Of a stretch of 60,356 nucleotides of DNA, positions 7,195 to 55,302 are shown piece by piece (the first letter of the stretch is position 1; each line of letters begins with the position of its first letter). Made by a program: the position numbers and the translations under genes. The stretch comes from Spirochaetia bacterium (GTDB taxonomy: Bacteria; Spirochaetota; Spirochaetia; CADAEX01). The notes below the pieces were generated by a model. It made no database searches. It saw only the letters and a program-made list of their open reading frames with translations, and was not told the origin of the DNA. Location of the stretch: positions 1 through 60,356 of the forward strand of contig CAXXHA010000005.1 in NCBI GenBank assembly GCA_963662265.2. The letters are read 5' to 3'.

Positions 7195-7306
7195 AAATAA
7201 TATACTTTTTTAATTCATTATTAATATTTTAGATGCACATTGGTAATTTTTCAAAAAATGTGTCAAAGTTTTTATCAGAACATGGTTTAAAAAGTATATA
7301 TTTATG

Positions 7307-8842: not shown

Positions 8843-8928
8843 ATTGTAAAGTTTTAATAAGCAAAGATCAAAAAAAACATATTAATATATTTGACATTGA
8901 TATTATTTATTCATATTCTTGAATATAT

Positions 8929-36257: not shown

Positions 36258-37261
36258 TGGGATTTACCCTGCCGGGGCAGAAGTATTTCAATCATTGAAC
36301 CAATACCCTCGGTGCTGTACATATGCAGCCCGTAGTCTTCACCGTACATCATTTTTATCCGGCTGTTTACATTTGTCAGTGCTATTCCTATTCCTGCAGA
36401 TTTGTTTTTTTCTGCTTTTATAGTTTTCCAGTCTCTGAATGAGTTGTTTATCTTTTCAATAATATCCGGACCTGCCCCCGCCCCGTCATCACGGATTTCA
36501 ATCAGCATCAGTTTTTCTGTCAGCTGTGTTTTTATGCTTACAAGCCCGCTGTCGAGCTTTGTTTCAAGACCATGATATATAGCATTTTCAACAATCGGCT
36601 GCAGTGTCAGCCTGGGAAGCCTGACTGCAAGTGCATTCTCTTCATCGTCCAAGTCAATTTGAAGTTTAAACCTGTTGTTAAACCTGTACTGCTGAATTTT
36701 AAAATAACTTTTCACATTTATAATTTCACTTTCAAGACTTACTTCATTTTCCCAGTGACTTACACTGTACCTGAATATCTGCGACAATGCCTCTGCCATT
36801 TCTGCAAGTTCCTCAACCCCTTCTGCAAGAGCATGCCCCCTTATACCGTCCAGAACATTATACAGAAAGTGAGGATTTATCTGGCTCTGCAGTGCTTTCA
36901 GCTCAGCCTCATTTTTCAACATATCAGCTGTATATTCCCTGTCAACAGATTCTTTAAGAAGCTCAACCAGCTGTTGAAAATTCATGGCCCCGCTATCCTG
37001 AAGATTGTCATCACCCTTTATAAAAATATCAGCTGCAGTTTCAACAGATTTAAGAGGCTTATAGATATTAAAAAATATCGAGATCAGGCATATAATAAAA
37101 GCTGTGAAAAAAAAGATAAGCAGAATAAAAAACCAAAGCTGATTCATCCCGCTGTAATAAGAAACAAAAAGAAGAGAAATTAAAGCAAATAAAAGTATAA
37201 CTGCTGCAAGGTGATTTTTTAACTGATTTGAAAGAGATTTCTTTCTGCTTTTATCATCCAT
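36254..37261 (-). CDS. LytS/YesM-type histidine kinase without extracellular domain
   Basis: LQSQINPHFLYN, LQPIVENAIYHG and DDGAG; two adjacent TM helices. Confidence 0.92.
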   Translation of the reverse strand: MDDKSRKKSLSNQLKNHLAAVILLFALISLLFVSYYSGMNQLWFFILLIFFFTAFIICLISIFFNIYKPLKSVETAADIFIKGDDNLQDSGAMNFQQLVELLKESVDREYTADMLKNEAELKALQSQINPHFLYNVLDGIRGHALAEGVEELAEMAEALSQIFRYSVSHWENEVSLESEIINVKSYFKIQQYRFNNRFKLQIDLDDEENALAVRLPRLTLQPIVENAIYHGLETKLDSGLVSIKTQLTEKLMLIEIRDDGAGAGPDIIEKINNSFRDWKTIKAEKNKSAGIGIALTNVNSRIKMMYGEDYGLHMYSTEGIGSMIEILLPRQGKSQ

Positions 37262-38882
37262 ATATTTTTCTATACATATTTGGTGTTATTCCAACTGCTT
37301 TAGAAAAGACTTTACTGAAATGACGGACATCTTTATACCCGACTTTATCACTTACTGCATGAATAGTGTCATTGCCTGAGACCAGCAGTTCTTTTGCAGT
37401 ATCCACTCTTTTCTTAAGCAGGTACTCTTTAAAATTTATCCCGGTTTCTTTTTTGAACAGGGTGCTGAAGTATGCCGGGTTTAATCCTGCCTCTTTCGCC
37501 ACAATATTAAGATCAATGTTTTCTGCATAATGAATATCTATATATTCCTTGGCAATTCTTATCGGTCTGTAATCTTTAATACGTTTTGATGAAAATACAG
37601 TATTCAGGACTTTGCTGTGAAGTACTGCAAGGCGGTTAATGAGCTGCTCTGTACTGCCTGCACTGTTCAGGATTATTCTGCTTTCATCATTCAGATAATC
37701 AATTACTTCATCATCAGCCGATATTTGACTAAGATGTCCGCAGGTGATTTCAACAGCTGTATTGAATAATTTAAGGATTGTGTCAGGATTTTTAATACGT
37801 TTTTTCAGTTCTGCCGGTAAAACTGAAGTCAGAAACAATTCCTCCAGACCAGAACAATCTCCTGTATCAACAGTGCTCCTGATCCTCACTTTAAGCTCAT
37901 CAATATTAAAATGCTGCATTTCTTCATCAAGTTCCGGTACAGGATTCTTTTCAATAATCCTGCCGCAGCCCTGTATAATTCTCTCCCGTCTGGCAAATTC
38001 AGCATCTTCATAGCTTATATTAAGTTTTTCTATATCTGAAACCACAGTTCCCGGACAGACTGTAATTCTCCAATTCCCGTATTCGGATGCTTTTTGTGAT
38101 GAAAATTCATACAGATGCTCCAGCTCCTGGAATGAAAGACCTGCAGAATTATTCATATTCAGAATATAAGTCAGTTTAAAATTACCTACTGAGCATAAGA
38201 ATTCATGGCTATGTTTACTTATAAAAGGGGAAAGTGATGTTTCTGTCTTGTGAAGAATTGTATTTACAGCAGATGTGTTTTCAATGACCCAGTCAGTTTC
38301 GCTGTGGTCCAGCTGTAAAATAATAACCTGGTAATAGGATACGGAGAAATCAACAGAGTAGTTATCTTTGAAAAATGAAAGCTCTTTATTTTTAACTCGG
38401 CAGCCCCTGTCAACAATCTCCTTAGCAAGCCTTGATTTGAGGAGCTCCCTGTTCTGTGACAGCTCTCTCTGAATATCATCATCTTTTCTGTTTTTCTGAT
38501 TTATCTTTTTCTTCTTTTCTATTATTTTGACTATGATTTGCTCAAGTTCTTCTTTAGAAACAGGTTTAAGAAGATAATCTTCCGCACCAAACTTGATAGC
38601 GCTTTGAGCATACTCGAAATCACGGTACCCGCTGATAATTATGAAACTTGTATCAGGATAATTTTCTTTGGATTTTTCAATAAGAGTAATGCCGTTATAA
38701 CCGGGCATACGGATATCTGTAATTACAATATCAGGCTGTTCATTCTGAATAAGCTGAAATGCATCAATTCCATTGTAGGCCTTACCAGTTATTTCTATGC
38801 CGTATTCTTCCCACGGGAGGATGTTTTCTATCAACTGGCAAACCCTGTGTTCATCATCTGCAATTATCAGTTTTAGCTTCAT
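37254..38882 (-). CDS. YesN-type response regulator with AraC HTH
   Basis: IADDE, TDIRMP, YLLKP and a C-terminal AraC domain. Confidence 0.93.
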   Translation of the reverse strand: MKLKLIIADDEHRVCQLIENILPWEEYGIEITGKAYNGIDAFQLIQNEQPDIVITDIRMPGYNGITLIEKSKENYPDTSFIIISGYRDFEYAQSAIKFGAEDYLLKPVSKEELEQIIVKIIEKKKKINQKNRKDDDIQRELSQNRELLKSRLAKEIVDRGCRVKNKELSFFKDNYSVDFSVSYYQVIILQLDHSETDWVIENTSAVNTILHKTETSLSPFISKHSHEFLCSVGNFKLTYILNMNNSAGLSFQELEHLYEFSSQKASEYGNWRITVCPGTVVSDIEKLNISYEDAEFARRERIIQGCGRIIEKNPVPELDEEMQHFNIDELKVRIRSTVDTGDCSGLEELFLTSVLPAELKKRIKNPDTILKLFNTAVEITCGHLSQISADDEVIDYLNDESRIILNSAGSTEQLINRLAVLHSKVLNTVFSSKRIKDYRPIRIAKEYIDIHYAENIDLNIVAKEAGLNPAYFSTLFKKETGINFKEYLLKKRVDTAKELLVSGNDTIHAVSDKVGYKDVRHFSKVFSKAVGITPNMYRKIYG

Positions 38883-40181: not shown

Positions 40182-40231
40182 TGAGGTTTTGTATGTATCA
40201 TATTGGCTATTCCCCTGATTTTGTAGACACT

Positions 40232-41041
40232 TTAATCTGATAAAAACTTATCTTCAAAATCAGCAGGGCTTCGCTCTCCTATTTGTCCATCCCGTCTTTT
40301 TGTATTGTAAAACATTTTAATATAATTAAAAATATCTTTTCTTGCCTCCTCTCTGGTTTTATAAATTTTATTCCTGATTCTTTCTCTTTTAAGATTTGAA
40401 AAGAATGATTCAACTACAGAATTATCCCAACAATTACCTCTTCTACTCATGCTAATTTCCAAAGAGTGGGCCTCACAAAAATCCTCCCAATCCTTACTTG
40501 TAAACTGACACCCTTGATCAGAATGGATAAGAACAGACTTTGTAGGTCTTCTTCTTTTTACTGCCATAAACAAAGCATCCATAACAATAATTGCTTTCTG
40601 ATGATTCTTCATCGACCAGCCAACAACTCCTCTGTTAAATAGATCAATTACTACTGCCAGATATAACCAGCCTTCATAAGTTCGGATATATGTTATATCA
40701 GTACACCAAGCTTGATTTGGCTCAGCAACAGAAAATTCTCTATTCAAAGTATTCTTCTGGTAAATTTCTCCAGGAACCCAAGGTACATGATGCCGTTTCC
40801 GTCTGTAAGCACCTTTTATTCCAGCTACTCTCATCAAACGAGCAACCCGATTAACACCGTAGCTATAACCTGCTTCTTTTAGATCCTCATGTATATTTGG
40901 ACTTCCATATACTTGACCGCTTTCTTCCCAGTAAAAACGGATTAGTTCTGTCACTTTTTTATTTTCTATTGTTCTAGGAGATTCTGGTGTTTTTAACCAC
41001 CGATAAAATCCTGATGGATTAACTTTTAATATCCTGCACAT
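40232..41041 (-). CDS. IS3 OrfB DDE transposase
   Basis: WCTDITYI, HSDQG.QF and GNCWDNSVVESFF. Confidence 0.95.
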   Translation of the reverse strand: MCRILKVNPSGFYRWLKTPESPRTIENKKVTELIRFYWEESGQVYGSPNIHEDLKEAGYSYGVNRVARLMRVAGIKGAYRRKRHHVPWVPGEIYQKNTLNREFSVAEPNQAWCTDITYIRTYEGWLYLAVVIDLFNRGVVGWSMKNHQKAIIVMDALFMAVKRRRPTKSVLIHSDQGCQFTSKDWEDFCEAHSLEISMSRRGNCWDNSVVESFFSNLKRERIRNKIYKTREEARKDIFNYIKMFYNTKRRDGQIGERSPADFEDKFLSD

Positions 41042-41088
41042 AGGGCGAATTGGAAACGCTTTTCTGTTGTCCCGAATAAAAGCGTACT

Positions 41089-41376
41089 TTACTGGGACTC
41101 CTTCGCAAAGTACGCTGCGGCCTTTTTTAAGATATCACGCTCCATCTTAAGCTTTCTGATCTCTGCTTTTAATTCTCTGTTTTCCTTTTCTGCTTCTGTT
41201 AATTTTTTCTTTTCTCGAGACTCCCCGGATTTCCACCCGGCCTTTCTAAGCCAGTTATAAAGAGTAACGTCACTTATTCCTGTTGCTTTTGATACTTCAA
41301 GAACACTGTGTTCTTCTTCCATTATTTGCTTTAATATTTCGTCTTTAAATTCTTCTGTGTAGGGACTCTTTGGCAC
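41089..41376 (-). CDS. IS3 OrfA
   Basis: YTEEFK, HTH and ERDILKKAAAYF; A6G -1 frameshift motif at 41122-41128 (minus). Confidence 0.93.
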   Translation of the reverse strand: MPKSPYTEEFKDEILKQIMEEEHSVLEVSKATGISDVTLYNWLRKAGWKSGESREKKKLTEAEKENRELKAEIRKLKMERDILKKAAAYFAKESQ

Positions 41377-41433
41377 TTTAATACTCCTTAGTTTCTAAGT
41401 ATATCAAGTGTCTACAGTTTTGGGGGAATGCCA

Positions 41434-41589
41434 CATTGCGTTTGGATCGAAAATGATTGAACCTTTTGCTGTTTCTGATAGATGAACAAGACCGCTTAAA
41501 TGTAAATGAGTGCTGTTATCTATATTTTGATCGCCAGAACCTGAATTTATAGCTGCTAATGAATTTTCACTAGATTTTGCATAATTCAT
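41434..41589 (-). pseudogene. Cassette ORF truncated by IS3
   Basis: ATG 41589 directly follows the previous stop; the frame runs into the IS3 end. Confidence 0.55.
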
Positions 41590-41591
41590 AA

Positions 41592-41870
41592 TTATTTTTT
41601 ATCACCAGATGTATTTATAACTGATATGGAACCATTTGATGCTGTTGCCTTATTAATTACTACGTTTTTGAAAATATGCGCAATTACGAGAGCTATTAAA
41701 GCCATAAAAATTAATATAAGAAAGAGAATCATTATTACAAATGTTTGATCTGCAGATAGTTGGGAGAAAATATCTAATGTTATCCATTCTTTGTATAGTG
41801 ACCAAAAAACAGCAGCTCCAACAGTCCCTAACCCTCCAATACCAAGTGCCGCTTTAAAGAATTTTTCCAT
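41592..41870 (-). CDS. Small 2-TM hypothetical cassette protein
   Basis: AGGAGG RBS and two hydrophobic segments. Confidence 0.7.
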   Translation of the reverse strand: MEKFFKAALGIGGLGTVGAAVFWSLYKEWITLDIFSQLSADQTFVIMILFLILIFMALIALVIAHIFKNVVINKATASNGSISVINTSGDKK

Positions 41871-41931
41871 AAGTCCTCCTTATATTATTCTATCACCAAT
41901 TGTATATTACTGTATTACTTATTCTTTTTCC

Positions 41932-42030
41932 GTATAACGCCATCTTCAGCTGAATCCGCCAGCAGGCGCGATTGTTGCAAATGCAAGAATCGTGATCTGC
42001 AAGGATGACTGCTGCAAGACTTTGTTCTAA
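41932..42030 (-). repeat. Canonical-geometry attC site (99 bp)
   Basis: Minus: TTAGAAC-5nt-CTTGCAGC...GCTGAAG-5nt-GTTATAC with one extra base in L''; long internal palindrome. Confidence 0.85.
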
Positions 42031-42039
42031 AGATTTCAT

Positions 42040-42919
42040 CTAAGTATATTCTAATTTAAATTTTTCAATAATTTTTTCTTTATTATATCCTTTTGTAACA
42101 TACAAATTTAATTCATCAAAATAATCTGCTAAAGTTTTTTCCTTATGAATTATAATACCACTAGTTGAGATAAATATTTTGATAACATCAGTGGGAATCA
42201 TTGGTGTTTTCTTTAGATGAATAACGAGATTATCTAAATCACTTTCTTTCAAGTTTCTTCTTTCAGAATTTAATATGATAAAATAGAATGATGCAAAAAA
42301 TTCAAGAGCATCTTCTAACTTTAAAATATAAATCACTTTAATGACTTCTAAAAAAGGTAGTATCTTTTCAATATCATCTAGTCCAATATTTAAAAAAACA
42401 AAATATCTTAGGGCAAAAACCCTATCCTTTATACTGAGCTGTTCATATTTTGTAGACATTTTGATTATTTTGTCGATTCTAGCTAATTTTTGCTTTTGAC
42501 TGAGATTATCAATAATAAAATTACTTGCTTGTATCTTTATTGTTTCAACTTCAGATGCAATCTTTATTGAACTTATTATAGATATAATGATTATTGTTGA
42601 AAATAAGAGCAAGAAACTTAAACTCGCAGTTTTAATATCCCAGGATATTGAATATATAGTCAACATTCCAAGTAGCAAAGTTAAAACGGCTTCAGTCACA
42701 CTATCTTTGCTAATATAGATAGAAATAGAGATAATACTCAAAAATATTGATAGAATAAACTGAGCAGAAAAAACCAGATATTCCTATACTTACAAAAATT
42801 ATAAAGGCTAAAAAAAGAATTATAAAAACAAAATTAGGAAAATCCTTATAGAGTTTTGAAAATACTCCTTTGAGGGATTGCCACGATTTACTTAAAGAGC
42901 TATTTATATCATCATTCAT
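42040..42919 (-). pseudogene. Multi-TM hypothetical cassette protein, frameshift near 42740-42770
   Basis: ORFs 42710-42919 and 42040-42741 join into one hydrophobic N-terminus plus helical C-terminus; ATGAATGA coupling to the upstream gene. Confidence 0.6.
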
Positions 42920-43253
42920 ATCTATTCTTCTTTGATTTGATTATTTTAATAACATCATCATGTCTGTTACCTGCAATAATATCTTTTAGTTTTAAATAAT
43001 TAGCTTCTTTATCGTATTGTAGATGAATTCGCCAGCCAGATATTTTATCAATATCAGCTCTATAGATATTTTGTTTAACTCCTTTGACTCTATGTAATCT
43101 AGATACTGGAAATTCTCTGTTTTTATGACATTCATTATCCTCAAGTTCAGCCAGTGTTTCGAATAATCCTAATCTAAAATTATCTTCTTTAAGTACCTTA
43201 TTTGCTTCATGTATAATTCCATATTCATCTAATATTTTTTTAATTTCAGCCAT
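42912..43253 (-). CDS. Hypothetical protein, possibly RelE/ParE fold
   Basis: LHRVKG..IYRADI...WRIHLQY...C-terminal RHD pattern. Confidence 0.5.
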   Translation of the reverse strand: MAEIKKILDEYGIIHEANKVLKEDNFRLGLFETLAELEDNECHKNREFPVSRLHRVKGVKQNIYRADIDKISGWRIHLQYDKEANYLKLKDIIAGNRHDDVIKIIKSKKNRYE

Positions 43254-43617
43254 TATTGACCTCTTTATTCAATTCATATTGATAAATTGACTGTGTAATT
43301 GATCTGAAAGCTTTTTCGAGATTATCATGGTTTACACAACGGTATAGGGTCAAATTTATACTGTCAAAAATTGGATCATTTTCAAATGAAATAATAATTC
43401 TTATATTTTTATCTATTCTGAATACATACATAGTATCTTCAAGTGAATCACCTAAATTGATTTTCTTAAGTTTGTATAGATCTTTATGTATATTAGAGTT
43501 GTTTTTAAGATGCTCAGAAAGATTGTTAATCTTGGCAACAATTTTAGTTTTAGTGACTTTATCTATTTTTTTTATATCAGATTCAAATTTTTTTGTTGAT
43601 TCTATTAAAATATCCAA
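43246..43617 (-). CDS. RelE/ParE-like toxin
   Basis: ILIESTKKFESDIKKID..KIVAKINNL...YVFRIDKNIRII...LYRCVNHD; TTG start with GGAG RBS. Confidence 0.65.
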   Translation of the reverse strand: MDILIESTKKFESDIKKIDKVTKTKIVAKINNLSEHLKNNSNIHKDLYKLKKINLGDSLEDTMYVFRIDKNIRIIISFENDPIFDSINLTLYRCVNHDNLEKAFRSITQSIYQYELNKEVNNG

Positions 43618-43725
43618 TTTTTCTCCTTTTATCGATTAATACCAAATTCTTTAGAACAAATAAAATAACTATAAAACTATATATCTTATGTATAAAGTAT
43701 ATTATACAGCAAAATTTATTTTCTT

Positions 43726-43779
43726 CGCTCGTCGGCCGGAGGTCCGGGCGTCTTACTCTTGGGGGGCATTTACGATAAC
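43726..43779. repeat. Cassette leader repeat with GC-rich hairpin
   Basis: Near-identical to 52281-52334; the hairpin part is also at 48584-48608. Confidence 0.9.
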
Positions 43780-43825
43780 GTATTGAGAATACCCGAAGAT
43801 GTCGGATACTCCAGATATTTAATTA

Positions 43826-43854
43826 ATCATATACCCGCCAGATTTCACACGCAA
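43826..43854 (-). promoter_or_regulatory. attC-embedded sigma70-like promoter motif
   Basis: TTGCGT-N17-TATGAT. Confidence 0.65.
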
Positions 43855-43889
43855 CAATAAAAAGCTCCGACATTTTGGGTGAACGGCAG

Positions 43890-46419
43890 TGGAAATGGCA
43901 AGTCATTTTCCCCACATTTAGGAAATTAAAAAATCCCCCACCTGCAGAAAAAAATTATACCCCCTTTTTCTCCTGAATTCTATATGAATCTCCCTCAAGG
44001 GAGAAAACATGCGCATGATGTAAAAGGCCTATCAAGCATTGCTGTTGTCATGATTTTCATCACCCATCATTTCAGACCACTGATCAAAACCTTTATTTGA
44101 AGTAATTATTACTGACGATCTTTCATAGAGTTCGCTGATAAGATTAAAAAAAAGATTGGCCTCTTTTCTGTCCGATAGGCGTATAGCCTATTTCATCAAT
44201 AATTAGTAACGAAGATCTGAGAATCCTGTTTATTCTGAATGAACTTGATCTCATAGTTTTCCATTGTTTTCAACAGTTTTATTAGTGAAGTTATCCTTTC
44301 AAAACAGACAGTGTATCCGGCTTCAATTGCCTTGTACCCGAGAGCAATTGATAGATGTGTTTTTCCCCAAGGCCGGGAGGTCCAAAGAACATGATATTTT
44401 TCAGATTTATCTATCCACCTGAAAATCCTTGAGATTATTTAACTGTTCTTCCAGTTATCCCTTTTATTCTTGAAAAAATTGAATGTCCTCAAGTTCCTTA
44501 ATTACAGGAAAATGGGCACCTGTAAGATTTCTATGGAAGACGTCTTTCATTTCTGAAATGTACTTCTTCTGTAAGAAGGATGCTTAAAAAATCAAGATGA
44601 GATTATTTTCTCCTTTGTTGCTTTTTCAAGTGCCTCATCAAGATTAACAGATATTCCCTTTAAGCTTTAGACTATCAAGTATTCCTGTACAGTAATCAAA
44701 AACAGCTCATAAAGCACCTCCTAAAAGACTTACAAGTGAGGTGTAGTAACTTAAATCCCTTTTCTTTACTTCTATGTTTTTTATTCTCATGTTTTTACAG
44801 CTTTTATTCCTGTAAGAAGCTGTGGCAGAATATCCGGATAATTTTCAGTTTCACAGCTTCTTACATAAAGATAAGACTCTTCAAAATTCCTTGCAGATAG
44901 TGTTTCCGTTTTTCAATGCATAAATCTGCAGTTTTTTGCTATTAACTTATCATCAGGATTTGAGTTTATGAAAGCATAAAGCTCGCGCTGCTGATCTCTG
45001 TAATACCTGCTGTATTTTTTGTAATTTCTGATCAACATATTGTTTTCCATGAGTTACTGCTAAATCTGTTCTTTAATTTTTTGATAAACTTCATCGGGGC
45101 TTGGAATCATAATTCCTGAAATGATTATGTTTGGTTATTTTTTTTCCCCCTTTATCGGTGAGATTTTGTGCCTGGCAATCTCTTCTCCATCTATTTTGTC
45201 ATAGATAAAAAGGTCTGTATCTGTTTGGTAAAATCCAGACAGTTTTTTTTCTGAACCTGTTAGGGGACAGAGTAAAATGAAGATGAAACACTTATCAATG
45301 ATTTACTATTTTACTTCCCTTGATTCTTTATTTATGATGCTTTCCCTTCTGAAAAATAGACGGCTTTAATTTTTTTAAAATGTGGAATCTCTTTAAGCAA
45401 AGCTTCTTGAGGAATTATTCCAGTTGCCTGGCATATTTTTACCGTTAGCTCTTCTTGAAAAGCCAATTATTTAATGCCTCCTGTATTTGAATCAAAGGAT
45501 GTGAAAATGTCCTTGCTGAAAAGAAAACTGCTTTTGATGAATTTCACAAAGTTTTCGACTTTACCTTTGCTCTCAGGGTCCTGCTTTTCTGCAGACATAC
45601 ATCTTAAACCCCCTGCTCATCCTTGAAGGCTTTTAAATTCTTTTGTATACTTAATATCTCCGCTGTTTTCTTTAACAACCATGACTTTGTCCTGATCAAT
45701 CACGATTTCTTCAGGTACCCCTCCTATTATTTCAAAAGGTATCAAGTAAATGATTTATCACATCTATGGATTTAAACGGCCTCTTCTGTACTGCTGCATA
45801 CTTGAATCTGCTTACAGATAGAATGACTCCAAAGATATATACTTTCTCACCGGTTTCTATTTCAGTTTCTCCGAAATCAAGCTGTAGTTGTTTTCCATGT
45901 GGAAGTTCTTCAACCGGTGTATAGATTCTCTTGTATTCGTAATTATCTACTTCTCCTGTTTTTCTTTAAGAAAATGAGATAATTTCTCAAAGTCCCCTTT
46001 CAGTGCCGGGAAAGTTCTCCATATTTTTCTTCAAGAACATCATAGATTGATGAAGTGTATATTTTTATTGTTATTTAAATTAAAAATATTCAGTATTTCA
46101 TCTTTGAAAGGAGCAAAAATCTTTTCCTTTTCTACACTGTTTATCTGGTATTCAAGATACTCTGCTTCCGACATTTCAAAGTATTTTCTAACTGTTTTTT
46201 CTGTCTCGATTTTTTAATTCTCTGGATATTTTTCCTTTTTGAATATCCTCTATTCTTGAAAAACTCTTATTTTTTGGTACATATTCATAGTAATCATTTG
46301 AGTCATTCCTGGTAGTTTTTGTCGTGATTACATACTAAGGTTTGACTCTTTTTTTTTTCCTATAGGGTGGGGAATTTTATTTTTCCATCCTATAGGGGAT
46401 TTCATGTTTACCATTTCCA
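43890..46419 (-). mobile_element. IS21-family element (2530 bp); istA (~46288-44712) and istB (~44710-43980) heavily frameshifted
   Basis: Ends TGGAAATGG...CCATTTCCA; 6-bp target duplication CGGCAG (43884-43889 and 46420-46425); fragments LQLDFG, PESKGKVENFVKF, GKTHLSIALG and TSNKGFDQW. Confidence 0.9.
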
Positions 46420-46489
46420 CGGCAGTTATTCCCAAGCTTTTACTGCTTATGCCTGAAACCGTGGTATTCTCTGTTATGTTTAGTTCAAA

Positions 46490-47583
46490 ATCTGACATAA
46501 TTAAATTTTTTTCAAAGTACATGGAGGTACTTTGAAATCCCGATTTATATTAAGTCAAATATTTCAACAGAGTATTTTTTTCTCCAAAAAACTCAACAAC
46601 TGTGTCCAATAGCTGTTTTTTACAGCTTTTAAAATATCAATTAATTCATTCTTATCTAGCGAATAATCAATATAAAAATGATTGTATTACACCATGTCTG
46701 TAATTAATAATATCTGAAATCCTTTTTTCAATGAAAGTAATCTTAGAACCAAGTCTTTTCTTTTTTATATAGGATACTTCTTATATCTATATTTTAACCA
46801 ATCTTTATATGCTAGATTTAATTTATCAAGATTTTGAAAGACATATCTAGATGCGATAAAGTCTTCAATAGTTTTCTGATCTCTACTAATTTCAAGTAAT
46901 TCTTGAAAATCTAATTTTTGTTTATAATTTTTTCGATATTCAAGCGCGTTTTTTATCATATTTAATTAAAACTTTAAAAGTCTCCTGAAAGAAATTTTCG
47001 AACATGGATACAGCAAAAGGAAACTAATCCATTATAGAGAACTCTAGAAGGATCATTTCTTTTCATCCATTTCTAAAGTATCATCAAATTTATCGCCAGT
47101 TGGATTTCCATATTGTGCATAATCACCAGGAATTGCTATTTCAAGTTTAGACATATTTTGTGAAATATTTTCATATATCAATGCAATTCCTCTACTTATT
47201 GGTGTTGATTTATCTTTCCATAGAGGAGCATAACGATTGGTTCCATAATCCCCTGTGATTTTTCCCCCATACACATTTACGTGCTGAACGCAAAACGTGA
47301 TTAAGCATTTCTACATCATAATAACTTGCATGATACAGGTTTTCTAACATGAAGTCCCCAACGGCAAGTTGAAAAAAACAATATCGTCATCTTTAAGAGG
47401 GTAGATATCTGCCGATACTCCATCAAATGACTTAAAATCCTCTGTTTCAAACCATGCATAATTTAAAGTTTCTTCTGGCCAATCCCAAAGATGATTGCAT
47501 TTATGAAAATTGAGATTTTCAAGCAACTCTTTTAAATCAGATTTGGTTGCTCTTTCTGGATATAAAGTAAGATCTCTTCCCAT
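46490..47583 (-). pseudogene. Fragmented hypothetical cassette gene(s)
   Basis: Consecutive ORF pieces 47344-47583, 47053-47274 and 46765-46959 within one cassette; 3' limit uncertain. Confidence 0.5.
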
Positions 47584-47648
47584 ATTTCCTTCTTCTTCCG
47601 AGCCAAGGATGGCGAGGTTTGATTACCCTTATTTAGATTTTGAATTGA

Positions 47649-47812
47649 ACATAACGTTTCAGAAATATATGAAGATGCCAGACGATCTCCATATGAAATA
47701 ATCATATACCTGCTTATATATCATCGCAACACAAAAAGTTCTGGCATTTTGGGAAAGTCTGTCTACATTCATTTTTACTACACCAGACTTGATCATATAT
47801 TTCTTGTTACAA
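47649..47812 (-). repeat. Long attC-like site, family A (164 bp)
   Basis: Plus: TAAC-gtttc-agaaatatatga...tcatatatttct-t-GTTA with two internal stems. Confidence 0.9.
47701..47729 (-). promoter_or_regulatory. attC-embedded sigma70-like promoter motif
   Basis: TTGCGA-N17-TATGAT. Confidence 0.65.
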
Positions 47813-47910
47813 GCAGTATTCTCGCAATACCCAAGCCCGTACAGCGGAGCTAGGGCTGGACGTTTATACCATATATAATCTTCTATATCTGTTATAAAAA
47901 AGACATTACT

Positions 47911-48540
47911 TTATGGTAAGAAAGTGAAATATTTCTCCGGAATAGATTTACTATCATAAATCACTCTTGGATTATTTATTTTATTCGTAATAATATCTTC
48001 AATAAATATGATATAAGCTTTTGGAAATATCTTTTCAAATGATTCTGGAAGTTCATTTAATTTATTGTGCCATAAAAGAATAAACTCAATGTCTGTATTT
48101 AGTCCAATTATATTCTCAAAACTCATTAAATTTGAATTTGTGAGTGAGAAGTGTTTCAGTTTTTTATTAGCTGTTAAATCTAATTTCTTAAATAAAAAAT
48201 CATCTCCTTCAATCCAAAGAGACTTTAATTCTGGGAGTAATTTTAAAAAAGAATAATTACTAATTCTTGTAGTAAAGAAATCAAGTCTTTCTAAATTCTT
48301 AAAGTCAGTTAGGAAAGAATAATCGTTGATGTTATTTATCATACTAAAATCAATATGAGTAACTTTATCTATATTCTCTGGAAGTATTTTTATTATTCCT
48401 GTTTTTGAAAATGCTATTTTTCCATCTTTTATAGGTAGAGAAATAGTTTCATTATTATAAGTAATATATTTTATCGAATTTTGTGAGTAAGCTGCAGTCG
48501 AGGTTAATAAAATTGTAATAATTAAAAACACTTTTTTCAT
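47911..48540 (-). CDS. Secreted leucine-rich-repeat protein (cassette)
   Basis: Signal peptide and LxxLxLxxN-type repeats. Confidence 0.75.
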   Translation of the reverse strand: MKKVFLIITILLTSTAAYSQNSIKYITYNNETISLPIKDGKIAFSKTGIIKILPENIDKVTHIDFSMINNINDYSFLTDFKNLERLDFFTTRISNYSFLKLLPELKSLWIEGDDFLFKKLDLTANKKLKHFSLTNSNLMSFENIIGLNTDIEFILLWHNKLNELPESFEKIFPKAYIIFIEDIITNKINNPRVIYDSKSIPEKYFTFLP

Positions 48541-48631
48541 AAGTTAATCCTATTCGTAGCATAATATTATTATTTCATTTCTTCGCCCGTCGGCCGGAGG
48601 TCCGGGCGATCTTCTCTTGCGAGAAAATTGC

Positions 48632-48794
48632 TTGTAACGTTTCAGAAATATATGAAGTTGCCAGGCCGATACATTTAAAATAATCATACACCTGCTGATA
48701 ATACTCCGCAACATAAAACATTCTGGCAATTTGGATGAAGGCTGTTTGCTTTCTTTTTTACTCTCCAGCCTGAATCATATATTTCTTGTTAGCA
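48632..48794 (-). repeat. Long attC-like site, family A (163 bp)
   Basis: Same outer stem and architecture as 47649-47812. Confidence 0.9.
48683..48711 (-). promoter_or_regulatory. attC-embedded sigma70-like promoter motif
   Basis: TTGCGG-N17-TATGAT. Confidence 0.65.
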
Positions 48795-48859
48795 GCAGTT
48801 CGCCCCTCTCTTATCCGGTTCTTTGATATTTCTAAAAATATACAGTAAAAAATATATAA

Positions 48860-49402
48860 TCATATCCTCCCTAATTGTGAATGATACTGATAATAATATT
48901 CATAAAAATCATTTTTACTAATTTCTAATATTTTTTTCCGCATACTTTCTGGATATTTTTCTAGATCCAATCTACCTTCTTCCGTAAAAATTTCAGGATG
49001 TTTGAGCATCTGATATAATGTAAATGCTGCCATAGCTATATTCTGTTCTTCATTAAGCAGTCTTAAACCATAACAAGTAAACATAATATACTTTTCATTA
49101 ACTGATGGATCAAATTCCATATTATCTTGAGAATCTTTGTCAGCATGTTTTAAAAAATTGTATGATTCTTTCAATTTATTAATCCACAATTTTCTATATT
49201 CATCTTTTATTAATAATGAATCATATAATAAATCTCTGCCTTTTTGCTTTGTATTAATATCGTGTACTATTTGGTATGCTGAACAAGTTAGTGTATGAAT
49301 TGCAATCGGATCATCATCCTGAAACCATAGTTTAATAGCTATAGTTATTTGTCTTTTTGCAGCTTCTATTTTAGAAATGTTTATTTTTTCCATTTTTTCC
49401 AC
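48860..49402 (-). CDS. Hypothetical helical protein with HEPN-like motif (cassette)
   Basis: SKIEAAKRQI..AI.LWF...IAIHTL...A and YNFLKHAD. Confidence 0.55.
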   Translation of the reverse strand: MEKMEKINISKIEAAKRQITIAIKLWFQDDDPIAIHTLTCSAYQIVHDINTKQKGRDLLYDSLLIKDEYRKLWINKLKESYNFLKHADKDSQDNMEFDPSVNEKYIMFTCYGLRLLNEEQNIAMAAFTLYQMLKHPEIFTEEGRLDLEKYPESMRKKILEISKNDFYEYYYQYHSQLGRI

Positions 49403-49981
49403 TTCATTTTATTTAAATCTTTCAAAAATAATTGATAATCATTTATAACACTTTCAATATGTTCATAAAATTCATTTAAAACATGTTCACCATGATCTAG
49501 TTTTTTAATTACTTCGACGGGAATGCTTTTTTGTTCCCATCTATTCCATAGTTCAATAAAATTTGTTAATTCTATATACCAGTTTCTGGTTTCTGATAAA
49601 GCTAAACCCATTTTTTCTTTAATTATTTTTTGCATCTCTCGATATTGTGGTAATAAATCATCTGTTAATTGTTTATTATCATAATTTATTATTTTATCAA
49701 ATGGTTCAAAATATTCTTCATGATCAAAAAATGGTTTTACTATGTTTTTCGCATATTTCTTTCCAAGAAATATCAGCAGCTTTACTAATTTTTAAACGTA
49801 ATTCTGATTTTGCTTGTATATCTTTTCTCAATCCTAATAATGGTGAATATAATTCATTTATTTGTTTTTCATAAAAGTCAATTTTTTTTTGAAATACAGC
49901 TTGTCGTACTCCAAAGAAAACTCCAAAAAGACCAGCTAAAAAAGTAAACAATGGAGGAATCAATATTTTAATTATTTCCAT
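49381..49981 (-). pseudogene. Single-TM-anchored hypothetical cassette protein, frameshift near 49725
   Basis: ORFs 49724-49981 and 49381-49635 join across an A6 run. Confidence 0.6.
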
Positions 49982-50043
49982 ATTTTTAACCTCTTATATC
50001 TTATTTCTACTTGATCAGGAGAATATTTCTTGGGGCGAATTGA

Positions 50044-50207
50044 TGCTAACGTTTCAGAAATATATGAAGTTGCCAGACCGCTTCACATATAATAATCATA
50101 CACCTGCTGAAAATACTCAGCAACAGAAAACATTCTGGCAATTTGGATAAAAACTGTTTACTTCCAATTATGCTTCTCCAGTTTTTATCATATATTTCTT
50201 GTTATAT
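50044..50207 (-). repeat. Long attC-like site, family A (164 bp)
   Basis: Same outer stem; inner stems aagttgccaga/tctggcaattt and gataaaaactg/cagtttttatc. Confidence 0.9.
50095..50123 (-). promoter_or_regulatory. attC-embedded sigma70-like promoter motif
   Basis: TTGCTG-N17-TATGAT. Confidence 0.65.
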
Positions 50208-50214
50208 GTTTTTT

Positions 50215-50736
50215 TTATTGGAGTGGCCACGGAAAGATACCCCTTGTAAATGATTTTTGTATTAATTCAATTCCTGAAATAAGTTTTTCTCTGTCTTTTC
50301 CAGATCCATGATATCCAATAATTCTTAGAACATGTTCATCATCAAGTTTGAGATAACATGCTATTATTTCACTCCACATATAAAAATATATATTTATTGT
50401 TTCTAAATCATCTATGATTGTCTTCTTTAATGTATAATCATCAATGTCTGAAAAGCGTTTAATGATAAATGTTTCAAGATTATCCTCAGTCATATTTAAT
50501 ATTGTAAAAGATACTTTTGCTGAATTTGGATTTTGACCACCTTTATCAATATTTATAGCTGGATCAGGTCTGAATAATTGGATAAATTCTGATTTAAAAT
50601 CTTCTCGTGAATTTAGATTCCAATCGTCATAATAGTTGAATGAAAAATAATTATTATAATTATATTGAATGATTTCTTGAGAAAAAACTGAAACAACAAA
50701 TAGTAAATGGAAAATGATAAAAACTTTTACTTTCAT
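50215..50736 (-). CDS. Secreted hypothetical protein (cassette)
   Basis: Signal peptide and GGAG RBS; fills the cassette. Confidence 0.75.
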   Translation of the reverse strand: MKVKVFIIFHLLFVVSVFSQEIIQYNYNNYFSFNYYDDWNLNSREDFKSEFIQLFRPDPAINIDKGGQNPNSAKVSFTILNMTEDNLETFIIKRFSDIDDYTLKKTIIDDLETINIYFYMWSEIIACYLKLDDEHVLRIIGYHGSGKDREKLISGIELIQKSFTRGIFPWPLQ

Positions 50737-50763
50737 AAATTATTATCTCCAATAAAAAATTAC

Positions 50764-50933
50764 ATATAACGTTCTGAGAATACCCGAAGATGTCGGGTCT
50801 TCCACGTATTAAAATAATCATACAACCACCAGTTTCCACCTGCAACATAAAAAGGCCCGACATTTTGGGTGAAAGGCAGTTAAGCCCCAAAATTTTTACT
50901 GCTTATGCCTGAACCGGGTATTCTCTGTTATCG
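50764..50933 (-). repeat. Long attC-like site, family B (170 bp)
   Basis: Plus: TAAC-gttct-gagaatacccg...cgggtattctc-t-GTTA; inner stems gatgtcgggtctt/aaggcccgacatt and aggcagttaagc/gcttatgcct. Confidence 0.9.
50817..50845 (-). promoter_or_regulatory. attC-embedded sigma70-like promoter motif
   Basis: TTGCAG-N17-TATGAT. Confidence 0.65.
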
Positions 50934-51040
50934 GATGTGCCCCCCTCTCTTGTCCAAGCCGTACGACGGAGTCAAGGTCTGGCTTTTTATCTATCTCTCG
51001 ATTATATTTCAAGATAACATTATTTTTAGATAATCTTAGT

Positions 51041-52216
51041 TTAATCTATCTGTTCAATAATTTCTTTTGCATTATCCGTCTCTTTATTACAATTTGGTGA
51101 TTCTATAAGTCTTTTATAAAAATTCTTTACGTCTAAATCACCTAATATATACCATACTTGACTATTTTTATTTCCTATTTCTAATAACATTTCTATTTCT
51201 TTATCTGTCCAATCTTGAATATGTTTAATCTTATCAATAACGGTATGAGTATTCGTAAAACTAAGACTGCTTTCAAGTGCTAAAATACCATTCAATCTTT
51301 CTTTATTTTGTTCTTGAGTCTTTTTATCATATGATTTGTCATTATCAATTTGTTCTAAAATATTTTTTGAATGAAAAACTTCAAGTTGCTCATTGGAAAC
51401 AGTTCTTACAATTATTGCTTTTATTAATTTGTCCAATTCTGAATCTTCAGAATAATCAGCTGGAGAGAAATATTTAATTCTATTTTCCCTCATCATTTTA
51501 TAAACTTTAGTTTTATCCTTTGTTTCAACATTATATACGCCTATTGAATGCCCCCCATAAGAATTAACTAATTTCATACACGGGATATCAGTGTCACTAT
51601 CACCAATATAAATTATATTTCTGAATGGCACTCTAATTTTATCTGATGAAAAGCTATCATTTACACTTTGGTCATTAATATCCAAAACACCTTTTTCTAT
51701 TCTGAATAAAAACTGAGTCTTATTTGTATAATTTATTGCTTGAGCTGGCCACTTTGCAATATCATATTCATCAAAATAAAAAGAACTTGCATATATTTTT
51801 TCAAATTCTTTTGCAACTGATGTTCCTTCAATCATTTCTTTTAAACCAGATGAAATTATATAATGTTCAATTATAACATCGCGTTTAATGCCATAATCTC
51901 TTATTCTTGAGAACCAATCTTCTACTCCAGGGAAAAGAGTAACTTTTTCACCATATTCCCTTAACACTTTTTTTGTTACTGACTGCATCCCTACTGATGT
52001 TTGAAGCATTGTATACATATATGCTAGATTTTGATCCATTTCATTATCAGTAGCAAGCTTATTTGATCTCTCCCAAAAAGTTTTTATATCATATCCAACT
52101 GACTGTATAAATCCTTGAGCTTGCATATCGTCAGGAGAAAGGGTTTTATCAAAATCATAGCAAATCGCTATAACAGGTTTTTCTTCCTTTTTTCTTCTTG
52201 AGAACTGCTCTGACAT
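51041..52216 (-). CDS. HAD-superfamily hydrolase (first cassette)
   Basis: YDFDKT (motif I), IISSG (II), K (III) and IGDSDTD (IV). Confidence 0.85.
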   Translation of the reverse strand: MSEQFSRRKKEEKPVIAICYDFDKTLSPDDMQAQGFIQSVGYDIKTFWERSNKLATDNEMDQNLAYMYTMLQTSVGMQSVTKKVLREYGEKVTLFPGVEDWFSRIRDYGIKRDVIIEHYIISSGLKEMIEGTSVAKEFEKIYASSFYFDEYDIAKWPAQAINYTNKTQFLFRIEKGVLDINDQSVNDSFSSDKIRVPFRNIIYIGDSDTDIPCMKLVNSYGGHSIGVYNVETKDKTKVYKMMRENRIKYFSPADYSEDSELDKLIKAIIVRTVSNEQLEVFHSKNILEQIDNDKSYDKKTQEQNKERLNGILALESSLSFTNTHTVIDKIKHIQDWTDKEIEMLLEIGNKNSQVWYILGDLDVKNFYKRLIESPNCNKETDNAKEIIEQID

Positions 52217-52322
52217 ATCTGTAGATCCTCCTCTTTACTTTTTTGTAGTCTAATTCAATTCATAATCATTATAATCTTATCGCCCGTCGGCCGGAGGTCC
52301 GGGCGATCTTCTCTTGGGGGGC

Positions 52323-52350
52323 ATTTACGATAACTATAATTATATGCACT
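52323..52350 (-). other. Array entry site: attI candidate with dif-like 11-6-11 organisation
   Basis: Minus AGTGCATATAA-TTATAG-TTATCGTAAAT; contains the G|TT of the first cassette; no attC hairpin upstream. Confidence 0.7.
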
Positions 52351-52625
52351 CATCTATTTTTACTCTCTAGGAAATTTTCCTAAAAACTGTACAACTTCTC
52401 TCCTTTACTAGATATCCGGCTGCTGTATAACCCTCATACTCAGCTCAAAAAGCTGTCACTATTGTTCTACTGAAACTGTCTTAACAGTTTCCATGAGTCT
52501 CTAAATCATTATTTCGTGTATTTGTTCTTAATTTTAAAAGTTATATGCATGATCCATTACTATTCTGAAGGAATTATACTGAAAATAATATTTCTCCGAT
52601 AATTTCCGGAAGATTTTACCTGGTC

Positions 52626-53129
52626 CTACACAGCAAGCTTTTCCCACTCTTCCCGTGGAAGTACTTTTTCATCGCTGTTGTAGTCTGTAAACAGTATGCC
52701 GTACAGGTGGTCTATCTCGTGTTGAAAAAGCTCTGACATGTCATCATTGAACACCTTTTTAATCTTGTTTCCCTTCTGGTCAAGGTATTCAACTTTTATT
52801 GACCTGTGCCTGGTTATGTACTTGAAAAATGCGACTTCTGCGCTGAAGCAGCTGTCCCATACCTCAAATGTGTCATCACTCTTTTCAATAATTACCGGGT
52901 TAATCATTACAATTGTTTCATCCCCTCTCTCCATGTAGACAGCTTTTTTAAGCACACCTATCTGGGGAGCTGCAATTGCCCTTCCTATTTTGTATTTTTT
53001 CCGGCAGTAATGGAGTGTGTCTGAAAGGTCTTTTATAAGTGAATCAACATCATCATAGAAGAAATTAATATCCTTGCTTTTCTCTTTGAGAAGCGGATTC
53101 TCAATTGTTAATACATCTTTAATAGCCAT
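52626..53129 (-). CDS. def: Peptide deformylase (variant motifs)
   Basis: GRAIAAPQIG, DSCFS (canonical EGCLS) and QHEIDHLYG. Confidence 0.85.
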   Translation of the reverse strand: MAIKDVLTIENPLLKEKSKDINFFYDDVDSLIKDLSDTLHYCRKKYKIGRAIAAPQIGVLKKAVYMERGDETIVMINPVIIEKSDDTFEVWDSCFSAEVAFFKYITRHRSIKVEYLDQKGNKIKKVFNDDMSELFQHEIDHLYGILFTDYNSDEKVLPREEWEKLAV

Positions 53130-53301
53130 AATTTTTTACCTTTGTGATAACCTATTATAGCATGTAACAAAAAATTATCACACTTTTTATTTTTTCATTA
53201 TTTAGAATACATAATTTTCATTTTTATTTTATTATAAAATGCAATTTAATAATTTACTTGACTTGTAAATACAAATACTCATATAATTTCTTAACAAAAA
53301 A

Positions 53302-55302
53302 ATGAACAGTTTAAAAAGATATTTGCACCTTATTGTTTTACCGATTATCTGCGTCTCTGCAACTGCCCTGCCGCTGTCAGATACAAGTTTTTTAAAGGCT
53401 GAAAAAGGGGTTCTTGATTTAAGTTCCTGGGATTTTCAGAAAGACGGTTCTGTTTCTCTGGGCGGAGAATGGATATATTTTCCTGAACAGAGGATTTATC
53501 CTGAAAACATTAAATACTATAAAACTTCTCATAATTATCATTATATGAATGTTCCCGGATACTGGAACAATATTGAAGTTAATAACAAAAAGCACGGCGG
53601 AATGGGTTTCGGTACTTTGAGCCTTAAAATTATTCTTCCTGAATACAGCAACAATCTGCGGATAATGACCAGCGATTTTCTTACTGCATATGATTTTTAT
53701 GCAGGAAGTGACAAAGTTATTTCTGTAGGTGAATTCGGTAATGACAAGTATTCATCAAAACCTGCTTTCGGGACTTACACAGCTTCAGTAAAAACAGATG
53801 ACAATATACTTGATATCACTGTTCATCTCTCAAACTTCCATCACAGGGACGGCGGAATGTTTGATGTGCCTCTTCTGGGTTCAGACACAAAGATTTGGTA
53901 CCATTTCAGGCTGACTCTTATTTTTAACATAATACTCTTCTCTTCACTTTTTATAATGGGACTTTACAATATTTTCCTTTATCACCTTTACAAGTATTAC
54001 AGGGACCTTCTGTTTTTCGGAACATTCTGTCTTATTTTTGCTGTCAGGGTTCTTACAACGGGAGACGCGTTCGGTTATGTTTTCTTTCCGCAGATAGGAT
54101 GGAATATTTTCAACAAGCTTGAATATATTACTTTCTATCTTTCTGTACCCTGTTTCATAATGTATATTTTCACCAATTCTCCAGATGTTTTTTCAAACAA
54201 ATTTCCTAAAGCCATAATATTTATCAGCCTTCTTTTCACAGTTGCAGTCTATTCAACACCATCATATATATATACACATCTTATATCTTATTATGAAATT
54301 ATGACTGCACTTGCAGGATTGTATATCTTAATAAGGCTTATAAAACTTCACCTGGTTCACAGAAAAAAATCAAAAATAATGTTTACAGGTTTTATTGTAA
54401 TTTATCTTCCCCTTATAAATGATGTACTTTATACACACAATATTACATCAACAGGCTACCTGGTTCCATACGGACTGTTTGCACTTATTTTTATTCAGGG
54501 AGTCATTATAACAAACAGGATTTCCAGGGCTTTTCATACAGTTGCCAGTCAGTCGGATGAGCTTGTTATGATGAACATGGAGCTTCTAGATGAGATAAAC
54601 AAGAGGAAAAACCTTGAAACAAACCTCCGCCAGTCTCATGAAAATGTGGCGCAGTCCCGGTTCGCTATTATTATGGGGCTTGCAAAACTTGCAGAGCACC
54701 GCGACAGCTGTACAGGCGAGCATCTTGAAAGGATACAGGAATACAGCAGGACCCTTGCCATGGAGCTTTCAGGTTTTGATGAATACAGGGATTATATAAC
54801 TGATGAATACATAGACGATATTTACCACTCATCCATTCTTCATGATATCGGCAAGGTTGGTGTTCCAGATTCCATACTTTTAAAAACAGGCAGTCTTACA
54901 GAGGAAGAATTTGAACTTATAAAACAGCATCCTGTTATAGGGGGTAATGCAATTGAAAACCTTGAAAAGCAGATGGATAATTCACTTCTTACCCTTGGAA
55001 GGGAAATTGTCTACCATCATCATGAAAAATGGGATGGTTCCGGTTATCCTTACGGATTAATGGGCAGTAATATTCCACTTTCCGCCCGAATTGTTGCTCT
55101 TGCAGATGTTTACGATGCTCTTACTTCAGAACGGCCCTATAAGAGGGCATATTCGCATGATACGGCACACGAAATAATCATGATGGGAAAAGGTACACAT
55201 TTTGATCCTCTTATTATAGAGGCGTATCAGAAATGCATTGAAAGGTTCAAGATTATAAGGGAAGGCTACAGCAGGGGTCTTGTTTTTTACACCCACCTGT
55301 AG
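53302..55302 (+). CDS. 7TM-DISM sensor with HD-GYP phosphodiesterase domain
   Basis: Extracellular domain, about 7 TM helices, HDIGK and HHEKWDGSGYP. Confidence 0.9.
   Translation: MNSLKRYLHLIVLPIICVSATALPLSDTSFLKAEKGVLDLSSWDFQKDGSVSLGGEWIYFPEQRIYPENIKYYKTSHNYHYMNVPGYWNNIEVNNKKHGGMGFGTLSLKIILPEYSNNLRIMTSDFLTAYDFYAGSDKVISVGEFGNDKYSSKPAFGTYTASVKTDDNILDITVHLSNFHHRDGGMFDVPLLGSDTKIWYHFRLTLIFNIILFSSLFIMGLYNIFLYHLYKYYRDLLFFGTFCLIFAVRVLTTGDAFGYVFFPQIGWNIFNKLEYITFYLSVPCFIMYIFTNSPDVFSNKFPKAIIFISLLFTVAVYSTPSYIYTHLISYYEIMTALAGLYILIRLIKLHLVHRKKSKIMFTGFIVIYLPLINDVLYTHNITSTGYLVPYGLFALIFIQGVIITNRISRAFHTVASQSDELVMMNMELLDEINKRKNLETNLRQSHENVAQSRFAIIMGLAKLAEHRDSCTGEHLERIQEYSRTLAMELSGFDEYRDYITDEYIDDIYHSSILHDIGKVGVPDSILLKTGSLTEEEFELIKQHPVIGGNAIENLEKQMDNSLLTLGREIVYHHHEKWDGSGYPYGLMGSNIPLSARIVALADVYDALTSERPYKRAYSHDTAHEIIMMGKGTHFDPLIIEAYQKCIERFKIIREGYSRGLVFYTHL

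Follow-up and report, generated by a model that had tools for sequence, protein, structure and literature searches.

We analysed a window of 60,356 nt, which is the complete contig C5 of the Spirochaetia genome G000 (41 contigs, 3.77 Mb). Downstream of the core gene def, which is oriented like the cassettes, lies a 28-base core site. From this entry site an array of five cassettes runs along the minus strand, each closed by a repeat of 155-185 nt, and a last unit follows the final repeat. The coordinates of these features, together with related ones elsewhere in the genome, are collected in Table 1. No recombinase gene adjoins the entry site on C5. With our own nhmmer repeat model, as distinct from the covariance model of IntegronFinder, the contig gave six repeat matches; it carries no recombinase match, and this layout fits a CALIN. 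A promoter scan of 52150-52700 returned 2 promoter-like sites against 1.7 expected, and an Rfam scan of 42000-53500 (E up to 1) gave three chance-level matches, none of them over the repeats or the entry site. Between def and the next core gene the window also holds a gene for a 666-aa 7TM-DISM/HD-domain signalling protein (53302-55302), which is absent from this place in G011, a complete genome of the same genus (3.79 Mb).

Table 1. Features of the entry site, the cassette array and the recombinase genes in genome G000; positions refer to the window unless another contig is named, and a slash between bases marks the junction.
Feature	Position	Strand	Evidence or remark
attI-like core site	52323..52350	minus	dif-arm score, identity to C10 site, cassette homology edge, conserved island compared with G011
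entry-site left arm AGTGCATATAA	52350-52340	minus	
entry-site spacer TTATAG	52339-52334	minus	
entry-site right arm TTATCGTAAAT	52333-52323	minus	first 11 nt of cassette 1
entry-site crossover point	G52334/T52333	minus	
def (peptide deformylase)	52626..53129	minus	PF01327, 124 bits; orthologue adjoins the equivalent G011 site
cassette 1	50770..52333	minus	HAD-like 391-aa ORF 51041-52216; R'' TAAC from 50930, repeat end G50770
cassette 2	50050..50769	minus	173-aa ORF 50215-50736; repeat 50204-50050
cassette 3	48638..50049	minus	small ORFs; repeat 48791-48638
cassette 4	47655..48637	minus	209-aa ORF 47911-48540 with weak LRR match; repeat 47809-47655; GC-rich hairpin module at start
cassette 5	43779..47654	minus	repeat 46476-43779, interrupted by IS21-like element (~43890-46419)
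last unit	40204..43778	minus	after the final repeat; right arm and hairpin as in cassette 1; ends in IS3-family element
GC-rich hairpin module, 4 copies	52280-52308, 48583-48611, 43725-43753; C10 ~165208-165255		window copies given in plus coordinates
266-aa tyrosine recombinase	C10:162746-163543		PF00589; divergent from array of window repeat family
canonical integron integrase	C8:77912-78853		TIGR02249 383.6 bits, cut-off 265; N-terminal extension of roughly 90 aa
XerD-like gene	C11		PF00589
phage-type integrase	start of C14		PF00589

The G/T junctions on the minus strand lie at 52334/52333 for the entry site and at 50770/50769, 50050/50049, 48638/48637, 47655/47654 and 43779/43778 for the five repeat ends. 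The repeats open with ...TAAC and close with ...AACG/TT, and their two sequence families, A and B, can be aligned over the full length. Searching all 41 contigs with the window repeat model (nhmmer) gave nine matches, six on C5 and three on C10, and no others. Every definable junction in the window is followed by TT-N6-AAT (6/6), and AAT occupies positions +9..+11 in 16/16 aligned repeats of G000 and G011. An earlier note on this DNA had counted seven of eight cassette starts with the TT-N6-AAT pattern. The pattern holds at the six defined junctions, but the start TTCTAAAGAAT near 43660 has no repeat ahead of it and is therefore not counted here as a cassette start. The further proposal, that each insertion renews an XerD-like right arm, agrees with an array in which every cassette brings its own such arm. 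For the last unit no closing repeat was found after 43779 by nhmmer or by motif search, which counts against the explanation that we favour below.

Several cassettes carry a GC-rich hairpin module about 20 nt past the junction, in which AAGAG-RAAGA precedes a 7-bp GC stem around a CCGG-rich loop. Cassettes of G011 have this module too, and in G063, a Spirochaetota genome from another family, a GC hairpin sits at a comparable position. Candidate roles for the module are those of an antisense terminator, a 5' leader and a binding site. Both arrays of this repeat type, on C5 and on C10, accumulate IS elements. The IS21-like element in the fifth repeat (43890-46419) is apparently flanked by a 4-bp TGCC duplication. 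A contig from the likely source sample differs from it by 0 substitutions and 56 gaps, and an intact copy on C10 is 97.7% identical to it, so that the frameshifts of the window copy are probably assembly indel errors and not decay. The IS3-family element (40204-41437) contains ORFs of 95 and 269 aa (rve, HTH_21) and is 99.2% identical to a copy within the C10 array.

The entry site is a 28-bp Xer-type core with two 11-bp arms around a 6-bp spacer, within the 6-8 bp of dif sites. The dif-like sequence described in the earlier note is indeed present on the minus strand. Scored by script against the E. coli dif arms quoted in the note, it matches at 8/11 and 9/11 positions, as stated there. The combined score of 17/22 is reached at 5 positions of G000 and exceeded at 0, on both strands and among ~7.5 million positions. 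This amounts to ~0.08 such sites expected per 60-kb window, before the location at the array boundary is counted. The likeness to dif is genuine and uncommon, yet not overwhelming alone. The G/TT junction was likewise placed correctly at the border of the spacer and the XerD arm. It falls exactly between G52334 and T52333, where homology with a 99.5%-identical cassette of G011 has its edge at G52334, and a contig from another study backs the same position. We conclude that this 28-base dif-like site is a docking site for mobile gene cassettes entering this chromosome.

The consensus fold of 16 repeats contains 31 pairs, 17 of them with compensatory changes. The L stem consists of 12 contiguous pairs, 8 with compensatory changes; its broken cells number 2/192, and an extra base occurs in 2/16 sequences. 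Beyond the L stem, covariation also marks another stem, and a small hairpin is present as well. One repeat, folded on both strands, gave a better fold than 200/200 shuffles, with z values of -3.4 and -4.1. The R and L boxes are separated by 1 nt on the 5' side and by 5 nt (RAAC-type) on the 3' side, and 6 nt separate the L' stem end from the junction, which equals the spacing of the entry site. With cassette ends anchored by nhmmer, we compared the 20 variable bases that open a cassette with the 20 bases just ahead of its closing TAAC. Within a cassette the two proved complementary at 12.5/20 positions on average (n=23), compared with 6.9/20 for non-cognate start and end pairs (n=496); some low cognate values are due to indels or a missed repeat. 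By direct reading, the AAT after the junction stands in the R stem opposite a partner needing (A or T)GT, which leaves a conserved A.C mismatch. The cassette repeats are thus under selection for intrastrand pairing. They are attC-type imperfect inverted repeats of the order R''-L''...L'-R', with AAC and GTT cores, that fold single-stranded. The extrahelical bases in the L box and the spacers of roughly 5 nt on both sides that characterise integron repeats are absent from them.

Six genes of G000 match PF00589. The earlier note had advised listing the genome's tyrosine recombinases and looking for the insertion specific to IntI, and this brought up a canonical integron integrase on C8 and an insert-less enzyme of 266 aa on C10. 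The integrase on C8 belongs to a canonical integron (L014; C8:70000-89900, about 900-7500 and 7643-8863), in which the integrase gene and an array of at least 7 repeats (~190 nt each) diverge. These repeats form a different family, with TAAC-5 nt-L'' and L'-5 nt-GTTAT, i.e. with 5-nt spacers on both sides. A second host Xer gene (C11:30546-31179) is split into two ORFs of 139 and 102 aa in G000 and is intact, with 303 aa, in G011; the split copy is either a pseudogene or an assembly indel.

Among characterised protein families the C10 recombinase scores best with XerA (NF040815; 206.5 bits, cut-off 220), over the full length and with no insertion. The integron integrase model TIGR02249 gives 205.4 bits (cut-off 265) in two stretches, with model positions 178-239 absent, and the scores are lower for XerC (TIGR02224; 155.3 bits, cut-off 335) and XerD (TIGR02225; 150.1 bits, cut-off 330). 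None of the curated equivalog cut-offs of XerA, XerC and XerD is reached. Among solved structures, Pyrococcus abyssi XerA (4a8e) scores 138 bits, E. coli XerD 62 bits and VchIntIA (2a3v) 133 bits. The last match runs in two stretches that skip residues ~189-245 of VchIntIA, and the C-terminal ...SPL tail of the enzyme aligns to the VchIntIA end. In alignment with the C8 integrase both insert segments (31 and 10 residues) are missing and all catalytic residues are kept; the IntI-specific domain near patch III (I2) is absent. By these comparisons the nearest relatives of the C10 enzyme are archaeal XerA and the integron integrases, at much the same distance, and the enzyme has no I2. The best 120 relatives in a large protein collection are nearly all 265-266 aa long. 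A 50%-identity library contains 1775 clusters at E <= 1e-30, and in the best 150 of these the match runs in essentially one stretch without insertion, many of them with an N-terminal extension.

An attI-like site, ...ACAGACAATTATAG/TTATCGTAAATG, is located ~90 bp upstream of the C10 recombinase gene. It is followed by an array of window-type repeats that reaches at least 181.7 kb via shorter repeat variants. Twenty consecutive bases spanning the junction are identical in the window site and in C10:163637-163656. The left arms of the two sites match at just 7/11 positions, which counts against our preferred explanation. The G011 orthologue of the recombinase is 82% identical, with ...ACAGATAAATGTAG/TT upstream and 13 repeat matches within 13 kb. 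At the place that corresponds to the window, G011 keeps def, the next core gene and a gene matching window 37254-38882 in unchanged order. The site adjacent to def reads ATTGCATATAA-AAGAAG-TTATAGGAAAT there and is followed by a cassette and its closing repeat. Left arm and junction are conserved at this orthologous place, and the remaining intergenic DNA is unalignable with the window. A typical intI beside the site in relatives, which the earlier note had named as grounds for giving up its idea, was not encountered: the orthologous G011 site has no recombinase, and the recombinase beside the paralogous site is atypical. The array next to def in G011 (L028 5999-15808) contains large ORFs of 341, 728, 421, 148, 421 and 990 aa, which might, by size and position, be defence or restriction-modification genes.

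To extend the comparison, we considered 401 sampled genomes of the phylum, 7 of which (G000 included) have a recombinase match at E <= 1e-55. Three of these, G123, G086 and G063, carry orthologues from other families with 51-53% identity, and common to all three is an attI-like site ending ...AG/TTATCGG. In G123 the site CGTATAATTGGAG/TTATCGGCAAT is followed by a cassette and a repeat up to the contig end, the G086 contig stops 2 nt past ...TTAATTGGAG/TT, and in G063 the junction ...TTTTGAG/TTATCGGCAAG has three roughly 200-nt repeats further along. An attI adjoining the integrase gene, as in integrons, is therefore found for the C10 copy and also in G011, G123, G086 and G063. The left-arm consensus A-x-T-x-C-R-K-A-Y-A-A, taken from an alignment of five usable rows with the G063 row left out, fits the window arm. 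Canonical IntI scores above the cut-off in G000, G010, G011 and G063 and was not found above it in the drafts G123 (87% complete) and G086 (95% complete). In addition, each of the three genomes of the genus has genes for canonical IntI and for a XerC/XerD pair. In the cultured Spirochaeta isovalerica the related protein P0030 is 65% identical. Distant I2-less homologues stand beside arrays in a Bacillota MAG (L068, 36% identity) and in Christiangramia portivictoriae DSM 23547 (L070, 30%). At L070 the repeats close with ...ACCG/TT-N6-AAT-like sequence, and an attI-like junction follows the recombinase gene. No repeat array was found in the available DNA of the distant loci L066, L067, L069, L071, L072, L073 and L076, although for L066 and L067 the side in question comprises <500 nt; this comparison did not include L074 and L075.

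In the recombinase-adjacent array of G011, one of the internal cassettes matches cassette 1, taken from 52334 to its repeat end, with 99.5% identity over 1567 nt. The match opens at the junction G, and the def DNA of G000 and G011 is only 70% identical. Cassette 1 thus moves as a unit between arrays, as integron cassettes do, and the exchange was recent. Contigs from public runs add to this picture; being contigs and not reads, they speak for presence and linkage and not for rates. Those of the likely source sample cover 52287-54500 without any difference. The contig from another study, which represents a 98-99%-identical strain, matches the window from 54500 to 52330 with 18 substitutions and 19 gaps and is then unlike it. 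In that same study cassette 1 was also recovered as a separate 1406-nt contig with 0 differences, and in a further study with 4 differences. Short contig 'joints' were not used as evidence of excision, since their sides comprise 20-32 letters within repeats. A diverged copy of the cassette-1 gene (window 51186-52243; 67 differences in 1058 nt) is present on a source-sample contig at ~10x higher depth, which indicates that relatives of this HAD-like cassette gene are abundant in other community members.

GC skew is negative along the entire window, both flanks of the entry site included. In G011 the skew is positive to ~1.35 Mb and negative from ~1.52 Mb, with the cumulative maximum at 1.445-1.475 Mb. 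The orthologous entry site at ~1.692 Mb is 220-245 kb away from this maximum. The entry site therefore does not lie at the terminus or skew switch where a dif is located, and it is not the chromosomal dif. The reading of the site as chromosomal dif, which the earlier note had itself qualified while advising a check of the skew terminus, is not supported by these positions. The host's real dif was not identified by dif-arm scoring, a palindrome screen, or loose-pattern and conserved-island searches in G011 and G000. Scoring of the terminus region against the quoted dif arms gave a candidate at the G011 skew maximum, which was rejected as it lies inside a conserved coding stretch. The palindrome screen of G011, with conservation in G000, yielded no convincing dif. 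The loose palindrome ATT-N4-ATAA-N6-TTAT-N4-AAT has 16 matches genome-wide at >=13/14, none of them clearly dif, so that cores of this type are no rarity in DNA of such high AT content. At the G011 skew maximum (~1,446,200-1,446,245) we observed an intergenic island of ~34-41 nt that is 92.7% conserved with G000 C4 ~4237-4277. It is poorly palindromic and the skew of C4 is noisy, so that it is at best a weak candidate, be it for the host's dif or for a regulatory site.

The resemblance to dif could mean that host XerC and XerD act on the entry site as dif or a dif mimic, in which case the cassettes would be IMEX-like elements captured by housekeeping Xer. The 11-6-11 geometry and the score of 17/22 belong to the top tier of the genome, and the right arms of the cassettes resemble the quoted XerD arm, up to 10/11 by direct reading for TTATGTTCAAT at 47654-47644. 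A XerC/XerD pair is present, and the searches made identified no better dif candidate. The skew on both flanks and the distance of the G011 site from the skew maximum speak against this account, as does the site family itself: the left arm belongs to sites whose paralogues adjoin a dedicated recombinase in five genomes. The second Xer gene of G000 is moreover split, though possibly through an assembly error. Host XerCD as the driver of capture, as the earlier note had proposed, is consequently unlikely. The note had also explained the missing intI by a Xer-like integrase acting in trans. This stands insofar as no integrase adjoins the site and a 266-aa enzyme without I2 exists on C10, and it lacks support where the host Xer proteins are meant. 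An ordinary CALIN, left behind and still served in trans by the canonical integrase of C8, would make the dif likeness incidental. Canonical IntI is present in G000 and both congeners, above the cut-off in G000, and trans-served CALINs are an accepted concept (PMC4889954, PMC9668308). However, the C8 integron has its own repeat family and the window repeat model (nhmmer) matches nothing on C8, whereas the window array has its own conserved entry site, like the sites beside the short recombinase. The drafts G123 and G086, in which canonical IntI was not found, carry the short recombinase together with such a site. We therefore consider an ordinary CALIN of this kind unlikely.

The array might also have arrived by rearrangement, with the 28-mer merely its border and the site an inactive relic or a chance likeness. 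The 16 loose palindromic cores in the genome and the IS elements within the array are in line with this. Conservation of the left arm and junction in G011 amid unalignable intergenic DNA is not, and neither are the near identity of cassette 1 to its G011 copy and the 98-99%-identical strain that differs beyond the junction. Such a relic seems very improbable to us. The explanation that best accounts for the locus, with a probability of about 0.65, is that the entry site represents a second, integrase-less attI of an integron-like system that is served in trans by the dedicated 266-aa recombinase encoded on C10. What is observed of this system comprises its anatomy, a conserved site, recombinase genes linked to arrays, covarying repeats and mobile cassettes; the acting enzyme, the single-stranded substrate and the strand that is cut are inferred.

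If the entry site is such an attI, the double-stranded docking sites of the C10 recombinase would be Xer-type cores in which a 6-bp spacer lies between two 11-bp arms, which would explain why the entry site looks like dif. The short recombinase would bind this double-stranded site as Xer proteins bind dif. The cassette-end repeats (90-185 nt) are predicted to fold single-stranded, with an R stem of ~20 bp and an L stem of 12 bp on either side of a 1x5 asymmetric loop, and with inner hairpins. The folded repeat could then be bound as a mimic of the core, with the R and L stems as its two arms and the 1x5 loop as its centre. Between the folded cassette site and the docking site one strand would be exchanged at G/TT, the border of the spacer and the right arm, so that the fixed left arm stays and a new TTAT-N4-AAT right arm comes with each insertion. 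The product would be resolved by replication, as in integrons and in CTX phage integration. The I2 helix is regarded as enabling recombination of folded single strands (PMC7790495). Here the missing I2 coincides with no visible extrahelical bases in the L stem, and the choice of strand may be taken over by the asymmetric loop and the A.C mismatch. An enzyme without I2 may, however, use double-stranded sites instead. With canonical IntI and XerC/XerD encoded in all three genomes of the genus, another enzyme could also act in trans.

The system shares much with integrons. On C10 the integrase gene is divergent with an attI adjoining, and the arrays are one-directional, with mostly promoterless small cassettes. 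Each cassette is closed by an imperfect inverted repeat with an ...AAC start, a GTT... end, a variable centre and a G/TT junction. The repeats are homogeneous within the species, as in Vibrio arrays, and identical cassettes occur in different arrays. In contrast to integrons, the C10 integrase lacks I2, in the literature a defining feature that attC recombination is held to require. The R box of ~20 bp, with its invariant AAT at +9..+11 and conserved A.C mismatch, also sets the repeats apart, as do the fully paired L stem, in which no extrahelical bases are seen, and the 1x5 loop in place of two spacers of roughly 5 nt. The attI is a dif-like two-arm core, and a second attI stands without integrase. 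Like a CALIN, the window array is a cluster of cassette repeats whose own contig encodes no integrase, the genome having one on another contig; unlike a CALIN, it has a conserved entry site at the orthologous place in two species and repeats of non-canonical geometry.

With Xer/dif and the IMEXs exemplified by CTX phage, the site has in common an 11-6-11 core with the inner ends ...ATAA and TTAT..., an insertion that regenerates a usable site, and folded single-stranded DNA with an unpaired centre that imitates the core. It differs in lying off the terminus, in the dedicated recombinase gene beside its paralogue, in a crossover on the right-arm side and in a cargo of small-cassette arrays instead of phage genomes. 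Archaeal XerA (NF040815; PDB 4a8e, 5hxy) is the characterised family that the enzyme matches best, over its full length and without insertion. The C10 enzyme nevertheless stays below the XerA cut-off, belongs to a bacterial host, is encoded at the head of a cassette array and has the ...SPL tail that aligns to VchIntIA. Gene modules bounded by Xer-type 28-bp sites, as in the likeness seen in the window, are also found as pdif modules on Acinetobacter plasmids. The pdif sites are plain double-stranded XerC/D sites of alternating orientation that are served by the host Xer proteins. They are not known to come with long folding repeats or with a recombinase of their own.

According to PMC4889954, recombinases near attC without the IntI C-terminal profile 'are not IntI', and only four recombinases intermediate between IntI and Xer are mentioned, each with <3 attC sites. 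In PMC7790495 no ancestral I2-less sequence is said to be available, and archaeal IntIs carry the additional domain according to PMC9668308. Our search of the main texts of the literature found no published account in which an I2-less recombinase heads cassette arrays, and none of a dif-like attI. The working term 'Xer-type integron' would denote a widespread I2-less family that captures and shuffles cassettes via folded hairpins and dif-like docking sites, a generalisation for and against which we see the odds as even. Such a system would either preserve in living form the Xer-like state that is thought to have given rise to integrons, or be a parallel invention.

In integron biology the I2 of IntI is viewed as the innovation that enabled recombination of folded single-stranded attC sites, and in current detection tools it is the I2 insertion that defines integrons. 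A recombinase without I2 heads arrays in G000, in G011, in three more Spirochaetota (in G086 the contig ends at the site) and in two distant bacteria, among them the cultured Christiangramia; folding repeats and dif-like docking sites belong to these arrays. If the reading as a Xer-type integron is true, cassettes can be captured without an I2 helix. An active recombinase would make it possible to test directly whether integrons originated from Xer-like systems, and arrays that are now filed as CALINs or missed entirely would gain an explanation. A single recombinase would then feed several docking sites on the chromosome.
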